Positions 19,797-35,690 of a DNA stretch of 64,000 nucleotides are shown in pieces. The notes under the pieces are model-generated. The model was not told the origin of the DNA. It ran no database searches and saw nothing but the letters and a program-made list of their open reading frames with translations. This DNA is from Gammaproteobacteria bacterium (GTDB lineage Bacteria; Pseudomonadota; Gammaproteobacteria; RBG-16-57-12): NCBI GenBank assembly GCA_022712945.1, contig JAFLJP010000044.1:22939-86938 (forward strand). The letters run 5' to 3'. Every line of letters begins with the position of its first letter. Position 1 is the stretch's first letter. Made by a program: the position numbers and the translations under genes.

Positions 19797-20987
19797 ATGA
19801 GCTTTAAAAGTACCAAAGAGAGTTTGACAACAGAGCTGGCTGAGATCAAAGCCGCTGGATTGTGGAAAACGGAGCGCGTTATCGCCTCTGAACAGAGAAA
19901 TGACATCACACTGACCGACGGCCAACACGTGATCAACATGTGTGCCAATAACTATCTGGGGCTAGCTAATAACCCGGAGGTCATTCAGGCTGCCAAAGAG
20001 AGCTATGATCAGTGGGGGTTTGGCCTCTCTTCGGTGCGTTTTATTTGCGGCACCCAACGCATTCACAAAGAGCTTGAAGAGAAAGTGAGTCAATTCCTTG
20101 GCATGGAAAATACCATTCTCTATGCCGCCTGCTTCGATGCCAATACCGGCCTTTTTGAAACCATTTTAACCCGTGAAGATGCCGTTATTTCTGATGAATT
20201 AAATCACGCCTCGATTATTGACGGGGTTCGTCTGTGCAAGGCGGCCCGCTACCGCTACAAAAATAGTGACATGGATGACCTTGAACTAAAGCTGAAAGAG
20301 GCCAAAGCAGCCGGCGCCCGACGGATTCTGATTACCACCGATGGGGTCTTTTCAATGGATGGCACCATTGCAAAGCTGGATGAAATTTGTGACCTCGCTG
20401 ATGAATACGATGCGATGGTCCATCATGACGACTGCCATGCGGTTGGCTTTATGGGCAAACAAGGGCGCGGGGTTCACGAATATTGTGGCGTGATGGATCG
20501 GGTCGACATTATCACCGGCACCTTTGGTAAAGCACTGGGCGGCGCCTCTGGCGGCTACACCTCAGGGCGTAAAGAAATTATTGATATGCTGCGCCAGCGC
20601 TCACGCCCCTATCTGTTTTCAAATACCGTGGCACCAGCGATCTGTGCCGCATCACTCAAAGTGTTAGAGATGTTGTCAGATTCCACCGCATTGCGAGACC
20701 GCCTGGAAGAGAATACCCGCTACTTCAGAAAAGGAATGCAGGCAGCAGGTCTTGCAGTTGCCGATGGCGATCACCCCATCATCCCCGTGATGCTGGGTGA
20801 TGCGGTGCTGGCACAAAAAATGTCACAACGGCTACTGGAAAAAGGAATTTACGCCATCGGCTTCTTCTTTCCGGTAGTGCCCAAAGGTAAGGCGCGAATA
20901 CGCACACAAATTTCGGCCGCTCACACTAAAAGTGATTTAGACAAGGCAATTGCTGCGTTTGCAGAAACCTACAGAGAGCTGGTGTAG
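19797..20987 (+). CDS. kbl: Glycine C-acetyltransferase (2-amino-3-ketobutyrate CoA ligase)
   Basis: Alpha-oxoamine synthase family with the PLP-lysine region [13 protein letters not shown]. About 396 aa from ATG 19797, immediately downstream of tdh. Confidence 0.93.
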
Positions 20988-21009: not shown

Positions 21010-21019
21010 GGGGGGGGGG
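21010..21019. repeat. Homopolymeric G10 tract
   Basis: Read directly as cccGGGGGGGGGGtg, 23 nt downstream of the kbl stop. Confidence 0.95.
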
Positions 21020-21130
21020 TGAAAGTCCTCTGTAGGAAGCTTACCCCACAAGGAGGTACCTAGGTCTGGGGAGATCTGCTTACGGGGGCTGAGGGTTAAA
21101 GACCCTTGGCTACCCGATTAGCTCTTTTCT

Positions 21131-21297
21131 CTAGGAGGCTGTCCGAGAATGAGAGTCGTCGCGAGGGAAAGCCATTTTGAGTCATATTTTTCGTAAATTT
21201 GAGGGGAATAGTCGTTCTATTCAACAAGAATTTACGGAGAATATGGCCAAAATGGATTTTCCGCAGTAGGCTTTTCATTCTCGGACAGCCTCCTAGG
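21131..21297. repeat. 167-bp long-hairpin element, CTAGG type (copy R2)
   Basis: CTAGGAGGCTGTCCGAGAATGA...TCATTCTCGGACAGCCTCCTAGG. Pairing is nearly continuous, including TCGTAAATT/GAATTTACG and GAATAG/CTATTC. It shares conserved blocks with copy R3 at 34632-34799. Confidence 0.9.
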
Positions 21298-21352
21298 AGC
21301 CTGTCTGAGAATAGAGGTCGTAGCGAGAGAGTGTGAATGTTTAATCAGAACC
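21293..21352. repeat. Partial second CTAGG-type copy abutting R2
   Basis: CTAGGAGCCTGTCTGAGAATAGAGGTCGTAGCGAGAGAGTGTGAATGTTTAATCAGAACC. The left arm resembles R2/R3, and the 3' part matches the reverse complement of 33604-33660. Confidence 0.75.
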
Positions 21353-21479
21353 GGACACCGATATGTGAAGGGAGCAACCATTCCCTGCGAATGCACCTTA
21401 CCAGGAAGACCGGCAGAGCAACTGATCCGCCAATATAAAGTGGTTGCTGTACTAGGCTCAAATCACTGAGGGTTCTATT

Positions 21480-21514: not shown

Positions 21515-22300
21515 TTAGATCTTATGCGGCATCGCAACGGTGTGGTAACCACTATCTACATGGATCACTTCACCAGTAACACCCATCGCCAGATCAGAGG
21601 CGAGGAAGGCGGTGACATTGCCCACATCTTCGATGGTGACGTTGCGGCGCATGGGAGAGTTCTCTTCCGAGTAGTCGAGCATACGGCGGAAGCCGCTGAT
21701 TCCGGCGGCAGCCAGGGTGCGAATAGGGCCGGCAGAGACCGCATTAACACGAATGCCTTCCGGGCCAACCGCATTGGCCATGTAGCGTACATTGGCCTCC
21801 AGACTTGCCTTGGCGATACCCATTACGTTGTAGTTGGGAATGAAGCGTTCTGCACCGAGGTAGCTCATGGTAATCAGTGAGCCGTTACGCCCCTGCATCA
21901 TGTTGCGGGCCGCTTTGGCCAGTGCGGCAAAGGAGTAGGAGCTGATGTCGTGAGCCATTTTAAAGCCGTCACGGGTAACGCACTCCAGGTAGTCGCCCTC
22001 CAGCTCTTCGCGGGGGGCAAAGGCGACCGAGTGAATGATAATGTCGACGTGGTCCCAATAGTCATCCAGGTGCTCGAATACTTTTTCAATCTCTTCATCG
22101 CTGCTGACATCGCAAGGGATGAAAATTTCCGAGCCACACTCGGCACCGATTTTTTCCACACGACCGCGCAGACGTTCGTTCTGATAGGTGAAGGCCAGTT
22201 CGGCCCCTTCACGTTGCATCGCCTTGGCAATGCCGTAAGCGATGGATTTATTGCTGGCAAGGCCAACAATGAGTGCGTTTTTACCGGAAAGAATGCCCAT
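21515..22300 (-). CDS. fabI: Enoyl-ACP reductase (NADH), FabI
   Basis: [28 protein letters not shown]... SDR family, with the Tyr/Lys catalytic region ([23 protein letters not shown]). Start at internal Met 22300. Confidence 0.93.
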
Positions 22301-33603: not shown

Positions 33604-33660
33604 GGTCCTGATTAAACATTCACACTCAAAGCGAGCGATTGCCAGGCAGAGACAGGCTAC
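33604..33660. repeat. Partial CTAGG-type copy (inverted)
   Basis: The reverse complement GTAGCCTGTCT...GAGTGTGAATGTTTAATCAGGACC matches 21296-21352, including a near-perfect 24-nt block. Confidence 0.75.
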
Positions 33661-34631: not shown

Positions 34632-34799
34632 CTAGCAGGCTGTCGGACTTGGGGAGTCGTAGCGAGAGAAAGCCATTTTGAGTCCATTTATTTGATCATT
34701 TGGGGCGAATATTGAGCATATTCAACGAAAAGGATCAGAGAAATGGGCCAAAATAGATTTTTCGCAGTCGATTCTTCCTAAGTCCGACAGCCTGCTAGG
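34632..34799. repeat. 168-bp long-hairpin element, CTAGG type (copy R3)
   Basis: CTAGCAGGCTGTCGGACTT...AAGTCCGACAGCCTGCTAGG. It shares GAGTCGT.GCGAG.GAAAGCCATTTTGAGTC and GGCCAAAAT.GATTTT.CGCAGT blocks with R2. Its last 5 nt overlap the final codon and TAG stop of the adjacent gene. Confidence 0.9.
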
Positions 34800-35487
34800 C
34801 AACGGTAAGGGAGAGTTCATCCAGCTTGCCTAGCTTAAATTTAATCTGGTCGCCCAGTTTGACCGGAATAGGCGTTGTTGCCGCACCGGTGATAATCCAG
34901 TCGCCGGTTTGAAGCTGTTCACCTTGTTCTTCTAAAATTTTTGCAATCTGGCAGAGTAGCGGGCCAAAGGCATTCGGTACACGGCTGCTATCGAGAGTTC
35001 GAACGGTTTCTCCATTCACGGTGAGAGTAGCGCTCAGTTGTTTAAGTTCCAGAGTGGTGGCTTTTTTCTTACCCAGCACTACCGCTTCATGGACTAAATT
35101 GCTCGCCAGTAGTGTGGTGATATTGTCGCCTTTGTTGCGGCTGGCATTGATTAGCTCTAGCGCAGTTGCATAGCAGCCAATCGCCATTTCTGCCTCTTCA
35201 ACGGTGCTGTTTGCAGTGAGTGTCTGGCTGAGTTGAATGGCAATTTCACCCTCAACTAGCAGTGAATCACTACTGTTGCAGCGATGCTCGCCTTGCTGTT
35301 GATAACAGCGCTCTGCTAGCAGGTAGCCGATTTGTGGTGTCGGCACTCCTACCGATTGCTGGTCACACTCGCGGTTAAAGCCTACTTTCCAGCCGATTCG
35401 CTGTGAGCCGTTATCCAGTGCATCACGCCACTGTTGCAGTTGTTGCTGCATCCCTTGTTGAATCTGATTTTTGATTGAATTGTTCAT
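34795..35487 (-). CDS. Fumarylacetoacetate-hydrolase-fold hydratase/decarboxylase family protein (2-keto-4-pentenoate hydratase-like)
   Basis: About 230 aa from MNNSIKNQ. Has RIGWKVGF and a C-terminal GDWIITGAATTPIPVKLGD, as in MhpD/HpcG-type enzymes. The ORF-track start at 35640 is an extension. Confidence 0.7.
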   Translation of the reverse strand: MNNSIKNQIQQGMQQQLQQWRDALDNGSQRIGWKVGFNRECDQQSVGVPTPQIGYLLAERCYQQQGEHRCNSSDSLLVEGEIAIQLSQTLTANSTVEEAEMAIGCYATALELINASRNKGDNITTLLASNLVHEAVVLGKKKATTLELKQLSATLTVNGETVRTLDSSRVPNAFGPLLCQIAKILEEQGEQLQTGDWIITGAATTPIPVKLGDQIKFKLGKLDELSLTVA

Positions 35488-35690
35488 GGTTAATCTGCTA
35501 GCACATTGATGATTTCGGCCATCATAGAGGGAAATGGTCAGGGGAGCCAGAGCTGCTCTGAAAGTGATTTTTTGCCGAGTGTTAAATTTGCAACTATTCA
35601 ATATGTTTTTAGCATCTATCACTGGATGAACAGGGGGCAATTGCCGTAGAATAACCCACCTTTCCGATGCCTTTCAATTTAAAGAGATAG

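Follow-up and report, generated by a model that had tools for sequence, protein, structure and literature searches.

Two repeats of about 167 bp within the analysed stretch of DNA (the window: 64,000 nucleotides from contig C128; the assembly comprises 162 contigs and 3.24 Mb at 48.7% G+C) fold back on themselves over their whole length, and a sequence-only reading had claimed that where the two differ, both arms change together. This locus raises the question of what the repeats are, how they were spread and what their fold serves. The two repeats, R2 and R3, lay where they had been placed, except that their true CTAG...CTAG bounds, 21131-21296 and 34632-34798, exclude one G that had been included at the end of each. 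The relevant features of the window are the following.

21131..21296, + strand: R2, a full-length 166-bp MITE copy of subfamily D, in the spacer between the convergent genes kbl and fabI
21131..21153, + strand: left terminus of R2, CTAG plus the terminal inverted repeat GAGGCTGTCCGAGAATGAG
21274..21296, + strand: right terminus of R2, the inverted copy of the terminal repeat, then CTAG
21293..21336, + strand: truncated 5' fragment (first 44 nt) of a subfamily-A copy, abutting R2 at a common CTAG
21364..21458, + strand: right arm of a separate, CTAG-bounded palindromic MITE family of ~275 bp, "Z", ending in ...AAAGTGGTTGCTGTACTAG
33604..33660, - strand: claimed fourth copy, a 27-nt match plus weak resemblance to a terminus; no recognisable family member
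34632..34798, + strand: R3, a full-length 167-bp MITE copy of subfamily C, with terminal repeat CAGGCTGTCGGACTTGGGG

R2 is followed by the end of fabI (minus strand) at 21515 and preceded by the end of kbl at 20987, and the right CTAG of R3 (34795-34798) includes the TAG stop codon of a minus-strand ORF at 34795-35640. As had been proposed, each repeat folded into one long, nearly continuous stem, with an RNA MFE of -101.4 kcal/mol for R2 and -88.3 kcal/mol for R3 (z of -14.9 and -12.4, respectively, against 200 dinucleotide shuffles), and for both the better-folding strand is the + strand of the window. The blocks described as common to the two, GAGTCGT.GCGAG.GAAAGCCATTTTGAGTC and GGCCAAAAT.GATTTT.CGCAGT, were present in the alignment. 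The third copy reported at 21293 is genuine, though short; it is at most 97.7% identical to full subfamily-A copies and has the CTAG at the right end of R2 in common with it. The inverted fourth copy at 33604-33660 gave no match to the family HMM and shares only 27 nt (96%) with 21329-21355, sequence downstream of the truncated subfamily-A fragment. The "Z" arm is part of the same cluster of element remnants and lies outside the 167-bp family.

Iterative nhmmer searches identified 91 non-overlapping loci in the genome, 52 of which cover at least 150 of the 166 model positions. The loci are spread over many contigs and therefore do not represent the merely local duplication that had been considered as the alternative; the suggestion of a dispersed, MITE-like mobile family was borne out by these 91 loci, by their CTAG bounds and by copies in other genomes. 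Many of the loci are located at contig ends, which explains many of the contig breaks in the assembly. From this genome, 48 full copies were extracted, nearly all of them 166-168 bp long with CTAG on both sides, and tandem copies have a single CTAG in common. The elements are non-coding (overlapping ORFs were spurious only) and end in terminal inverted repeats of 19-21 bp. They fall into subfamilies A (22 copies, 95% mean pairwise identity), B (9 copies), C (8 full copies, R3 among them) and D (3 full copies, R2 among them), whose consensus sequences are merely 65-77% alike. Five chimeras (C41:15234-15400, C156:4338-4504, C112:7159-7314, C68:16772-16924 and C111:10356-10522) combine the end of one subfamily with the body and other terminus of another, and likely arose by recombination or deletion between adjacent tandem copies. 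In the chimeric copies the two ends no longer pair.

The palindromic tetranucleotide CTAG flanks both sides of nearly all copies, and 131 genomic CTAG sites lie at edges of the family. CTAG is depleted in this genome, as had been surmised (3422 observed versus 4907 expected under a Markov model and 12631 at zero order). Complete insertion sequences of 1588-1852 bp in other genomes (L133, L134, L142, L135 and L124) carry the same termini and CTA|G flanks. CTAG is probably the insertion target or its duplication, common to the parent insertion sequences, and no structural feature of the repeat. ISPse1 of Paracoccus, a member of the IS1182 family that was trapped experimentally, has a 4-bp direct repeat (PMC3281130), which fits CTAG on both sides; for the 167-bp family, the duplication is putative (4 bp, 2 bp or none). 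In its other properties the family qualifies as a MITE family, ordinary as a category. The literature yielded nothing specific on an IS1182-derived MITE or on CTAG as a target of IS1182, and no published description of the 167-bp family was found.

The ORFs of the complete insertion sequences scored 351-415 bits against the NCBIfam model for the IS1182 family (NF033551, cut-off of 270 bits) and contain the Pfam domains DUF772 and DDE_Tnp_1_6. Their terminal repeats correspond to those of the 167-bp family as follows.

Full element of a Desulfocapsa MAG: terminal repeat GGAGCTTGTCCGAGAAYAG, subfamily A/B type
Full element of E. numazuensis: terminal repeat GGAGGCTGACCGAGAATAG, R2 type
Full element of E. 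acroporae: terminal repeat GGAGCYTGTCGGACTTAG, R3 type
Full element of a congener: terminal repeat GCAGCCTGTCGGRCTT, R3 type

The left-end repeat of R2 matches the ends of the IS1182-family insertion sequences in Endozoicomonas numazuensis, and the two end types, CCGAGAAT in R2 and CGGACTT in R3, match two IS1182 lineages. Judged by sequence, the 167-bp family is tied to IS1182-family elements by identical termini. This assembly holds no intact cognate transposase, only two stop-interrupted IS1182-family gene fragments on contig C34, so mobilisation by IS1182 rests on the identity of the termini in other genomes. The copies in this genome probably no longer move. Outside the terminal repeats, the interiors of the MITEs showed no similarity to those of the insertion sequences.

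CTAG flanks with their central TA would also be expected of a MITE of the IS630/Tc1-mariner type that inserts at CTAG and duplicates TA, since this is the classical IS630 target. The likeness consists in insertion at a palindromic tetranucleotide; the transposase link of the 167-bp family differs, its termini being of the IS1182 type, and every full-length element with these termini encodes an IS1182-family protein. No match to the DDE_3 transposase domain (PF13358) was found in the genome, which rules out an IS630-type partner, and we regard this origin as extremely improbable.

One terminal repeat of the 167-bp family, GGAGCYTGTCCGAGAATAG, also encloses hairpin bodies that are unrelated to it, in Desulfobulbales and in other Gammaproteobacteria, with lengths of 147 bp (L012, L025, L041 and L087), 116 bp (L026, L044 and L100) and 127 bp (L069). 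Therefore, ends and body behave as separate modules, and several MITE families have one end type in common. Solo termini in other genomes, when checked for an adjacent transposase, proved to be fragments or to belong to other MITE bodies.

The identity of the termini bears directly on the claim of compensatory change, which stood for the interior of the stem and fell at its ends. The most striking differences between the arms of R2 and R3, GTCCGAGAATGA/TCATTCTCGGAC versus GTCGGACTT/AAGTCCGAC, are inside the terminal inverted repeats, and the conspicuous "compensatory" pair CCGAGAATGA/TCATTCTCGG versus CGGACTT/AAGTCCG represents the two terminal-repeat types. Since a single transposase recognises the two ends, each type has to occur at both; the end differences between R2 and R3 are therefore uninformative about maintenance of the stem.

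Covariation in the interior was assessed in an alignment of 103 distinct full-length copies, of which this genome contributed 45 and ~35 other genomes the remaining 58. At 51 consensus pairs, 94.6% of the cells were standard pairs, and 42 of the 51 pairs had changes on both sides in at least two sequences, compared with 16-28 pairs when the partner was slid by 1-3 columns and 29 +/- 2 in column shuffles. Double-change cells numbered 877 versus 144-263 in the slid registers and 228 +/- 21 in the shuffles. RNAalifold, run on an independent 60-sequence alignment, gave 56 pairs, 46 of them with compensatory changes. Conservation was mosaic: the terminal repeats and two asymmetric unpaired motifs (CGTAGCGAG opposite CGCAGTAG, and the apex TTTGAGGCGAATA...TATTTAACGAAAA) were kept, and the intervening stems varied with compensation. 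In one Endozoicomonas lineage, the loop motifs were replaced.

Both strands were folded, as the sequence-only reading had recommended, with the top strand defined by the asymmetric motifs. The top strand folded better than its complement in 101 of the 103 copies, with a mean MFE of -87 versus -70 kcal/mol under RNA parameters and -44.7 versus -38.3 kcal/mol under DNA parameters. Paired columns contained 395 G:T-type and 65 A:C-type states, a ratio explainable by inheritance alone, and the states were therefore split by the number of sequences sharing each. Among singleton states, which are private and post-insertion, 20 G:T-type and 16 A:C-type states did not differ significantly, and 68 other, pair-breaking states dominated. 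Conversely, states found in at least five sequences were overwhelmingly pair-preserving (21 G:T-type versus 3 A:C-type, p = 0.0003); being present in five or more dispersed copies, they must predate amplification and have existed in the source element. Wobble positions varied between lineages among 36 sequence clusters, and the consensus sequences of the multi-copy clusters contained 45 G:T-type versus 6 A:C-type pairs in total. In a cruciform formed by double-stranded DNA, G:T and A:C would be equally costly; the species that matters would therefore be single-stranded. These data indicate that the interior covariation is genuine and strand-specific. In principle, mutation that favoured one strand in a few source copies could also have produced the strand bias. 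Relative to GC skew, the top strand fell on the C-rich strand in 32 cases and on the G-rich strand in 18, which amounts to a trend only (p = 0.065).

Could such covariation be a by-product of DNA mechanics, through repeated fold-back duplication of an arm or homogenisation of the arms by repair or template switching? The element is palindromic over its whole length, the chimeric copies show recombination between copies, and one terminal repeat surrounds several unrelated hairpin bodies, all of which would suit such a process. However, homogenisation would erase the asymmetric, non-complementary loops, which are kept across lineages, and although mismatch repair acts most efficiently on G:T mismatches, these persist in amplified lineages while A:C mismatches do not. 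We therefore consider a purely mechanical origin unlikely.

The fold might instead be kept for a function in host RNA, as a co-transcribed terminator, an mRNA stabiliser or an RNase III site; such functions have been proposed for ERIC, YPAL and Correia elements and were among the roles offered for R2 and R3. All copies examined in this and other genomes were intergenic, about one-quarter of them abut a stop codon, and the hairpins are very stable. In addition, RNA-seq contigs containing the E. acroporae copy (L054) span from the flanks into the element in unstranded data; neither the window nor the E. numazuensis copies were found in any RNA run. On the other hand, adjacency to stop codons follows from the CTAG target, and there was no U-tract at the elements. 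Copies were situated between divergent genes (11 in this genome and 15 in others), between convergent genes (7 and 6) and between tandem genes with the top strand running along the genes (6 and 11) or against them (14 and 15). Tandem sites thus showed 17 copies in the same and 29 in the opposite orientation, which is not significant, and the 11 and 15 copies between divergent genes also argue against a role in the transcript. Private mutations were mostly pair-breaking, with no preference for G:U. Taken together, the unbiased orientation, the copies at divergent promoters and the private mutations make a host RNA role improbable, slightly more so than the mechanical origin. A search of the window with Rfam 15 covariance models gave no match at the gathering score. 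Rfam matches at E <= 10 were generic, plant miRNA-like hairpins only and scored far below threshold.

A strand-specific fold is also what would be expected if the hairpin body were handled as ssDNA by an HUH/Y1 transposase, either RAYT or IS200/IS605-like, the IS1182-type tips being secondary. Two GTAG-containing motifs lie in unpaired loops on the same strand, and the genome encodes five Y1_Tnp (HUH tyrosine transposase) proteins above the Pfam cut-off (C81:20480-20839, C49:3076-3417, C134:19456-19779, C149:4507-4833 and C112:16240-16485). These Y1 genes adjoin elements no more often than chance, however, and the boundaries of the copies coincide with IS1182-type repeats flanked by CTAG, just as in the full insertion sequences; palindromic CTAG is the sole specific tetranucleotide 5' of the element. 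The GTAG motifs and the strand-specific hairpin are the likeness to REP/RAYT systems, but REPs are 20-40 bp long, have no long terminal inverted repeats and flank a RAYT gene, none of which was seen for the 167-bp family. The RAYT search that had been suggested gave no link to the family; a REP/RAYT system was ruled out by the element size of 167 bp and by the five Y1_Tnp loci not being flanked beyond chance. Handling by an HUH/Y1 enzyme is thus very unlikely.

We consider it likely that R2 and R3 are members of a non-autonomous MITE family of ~167 bp that was spread by IS1182 elements and is now immobile, with a fold that serves propagation. According to this model, an IS1182-type transposase supplied in trans would have spread the copies by inserting them at CTAG, duplicating the 4 bp (as ISPse1 does) or the central TA. 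Only sources whose top strand is able to form a single-strand hairpin, as ssDNA or RNA, would amplify, so that the hairpin would serve propagation of the element and not a host function. Resident copies would decay neutrally after insertion, and those in this genome would now be immobile fossils. The motifs CGTAGCGAG/CGCAGTAG and the apex TTTGAGGCGAATA...TATTTAACGAAAA may be recognition sites on the folded strand. DDE transposases are not known to depend on a single-stranded hairpin, which counts against this part of the model.

A bolder proposition, which we hold to be possible though rather doubtful, is that the ~125-nt interior is itself a module, a nucleic acid structured on one strand, whose stems covary and whose asymmetric loops are conserved, riding on interchangeable IS1182-type ends and spreading horizontally across phyla, whose single-stranded fold (replication-fork ssDNA, or RNA) is required for, or strongly boosts, mobilisation by a DDE transposase. 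A single-stranded fold is a known requirement of HUH/IS200-type elements; we know of no such requirement for IS1182/IS5-type enzymes. Independently of that proposition, one data set here separates neutral decay of resident copies from one-strand pairing kept through amplification. Tolerance of G:T and not of A:C suggests that a folded single-stranded intermediate or cofactor takes part in spreading a DDE-ended element, a point relevant to the long-standing problem of how MITEs amplify beyond the elements they derive from. MITEs are common, and the reason that many bacterial ones are full-length palindromes is usually unclear; the 167-bp family is a useful model for why bacterial MITEs form hairpins.

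Among the congeners, G001 and G002 carry the family and G003 has no copy; the family is also present in one more distant genome of the same class. At three orthologous loci (on C141, C102 and C105), the congeners are without the element. No exact empty site could be aligned in them because the congeners are only ~72% identical in the flanking genes, with unalignable intergenic DNA, and contigs from metagenomes of the source samples, being interrupted at the repeats, gave no reliable empty allele. Family members occur in many marine Gammaproteobacteria, Desulfobulbales and Bacteroidota, and mark a repeat common to these groups. In a scan of one genome per species, the terminus GGAGCYTGTCCGAGAATAG was found, among the matches listed, in more than 114 stretches from several phyla; nearly all of these matches form inverted pairs with a spacing of 141-163 bp, i.e. 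MITEs. The hosts among these matches include Endozoicomonas, Ca. Sororendozoicomonas, Sedimenticola, Thiotrichaceae, Methylococcales, Alcanivoracaceae and Arenicellales, as well as Desulfobulbales, Polaribacter, Eudoraea and a Fermentibacteria MAG. An unannotated full-length copy, 73% identical (L172), is present on plasmid pMPC6-328K of Pseudomonas sp. MPC6 at 140983-141149, downstream of a LuxR-type regulator gene; the plasmid is conjugative and the strain is an Antarctic isolate. A conjugative plasmid such as this is a possible vehicle for spread between hosts.

The closest known systems are the IS1182-family insertion sequences (e.g. ISPse1) and MITEs from IS5/IS1182-type elements. Compared with the IS1182 elements of Endozoicomonas, the Desulfocapsa MAG and the congener, which have identical terminal repeats and likewise CTAG flanks, the 167-bp family has no transposase, an unrelated interior, a whole-length hairpin and strand-specific covariation. 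Like the 167-bp family, YPAL/RU-2 of Yersinia is 167-168 bp long and intergenic, forms a long hairpin and is often near gene 3' ends. The proposed kinship to YPAL did not extend beyond length, there being no sequence similarity; BLASTN with the published RU-2 found nothing in the 103 copies or the genome. YPAL has no TA-containing termini, and it has internal inverted repeats and duplications that vary from 3 to 26 bp (PMC2229807). Correia/NEMIS of Neisseria and ERIC/IRU of enterobacteria are, like the present elements, small, palindromic and MITE-like with TA at their termini, and differ from them in sequence, size and hosts. Transcripts of both fold into hairpins with proposed roles at the mRNA level; in contrast to Correia/ERIC, the 167-bp family shows neither orientation bias nor purifying selection on resident copies.

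Several additional observations concern the flanks and the neighbouring repeats. In other genomes, CCAG on the left and/or CTGG on the right replaced CTAG at L017, L019, L061, L068, L104, L106, L113 and L114. The CCAG...CTGG flanks are inverted and not direct, which simple duplication does not predict, and the change is invariably at the outer T/A of CTAGG/CCTAG. Very-short-patch repair, which turns CTWGG into CCWGG, would produce just this change. The genome of Ca. Sororendozoicomonas, where the majority of these variants occur, encodes Vsr, and the genome of the window, where none occur, does not; in the remaining genomes with variants, no Vsr gene was detected. Flanks also recur beside the elements, e.g. 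...TTACTTGTCTTTTTGCCCACCTTAT directly before CTAG and GCCGGTATTSGKTGCRTAGYKMRCT directly after it, suggesting further repeat families for which CTAG is either the end or the target.

The "Z" family (~275 bp, terminal repeat TACAGCAACCACTTTATATTGACGG) has at least 12 copies, e.g. C139:11715-11982 and C62:32283-32552, with a two-armed fold and an MFE of about -160 to -180 kcal/mol, and 167-bp elements often adjoin it precisely at its terminal CTAG. The kbl-fabI spacer contains a run of 10 G at ~21011-21020 and two short repeats at window positions 21017-21045 and 21084-21121. One spacer repeat, GTGAAAGTCCTCTGTAGGAAGCTTACCC, has ~5 copies; the other, GGGGGCTGAGGGTTAAAGACCCTTGGCTACCCGATTAG, has ~10 copies, and two congeners contain it at many sites with 93-97% conservation. 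The spacer repeats on contigs C49 and C134 are 1-2 kb away from Y1_Tnp genes and could therefore represent the ends, or guide-RNA remnants, of IS200/IS605-type elements.
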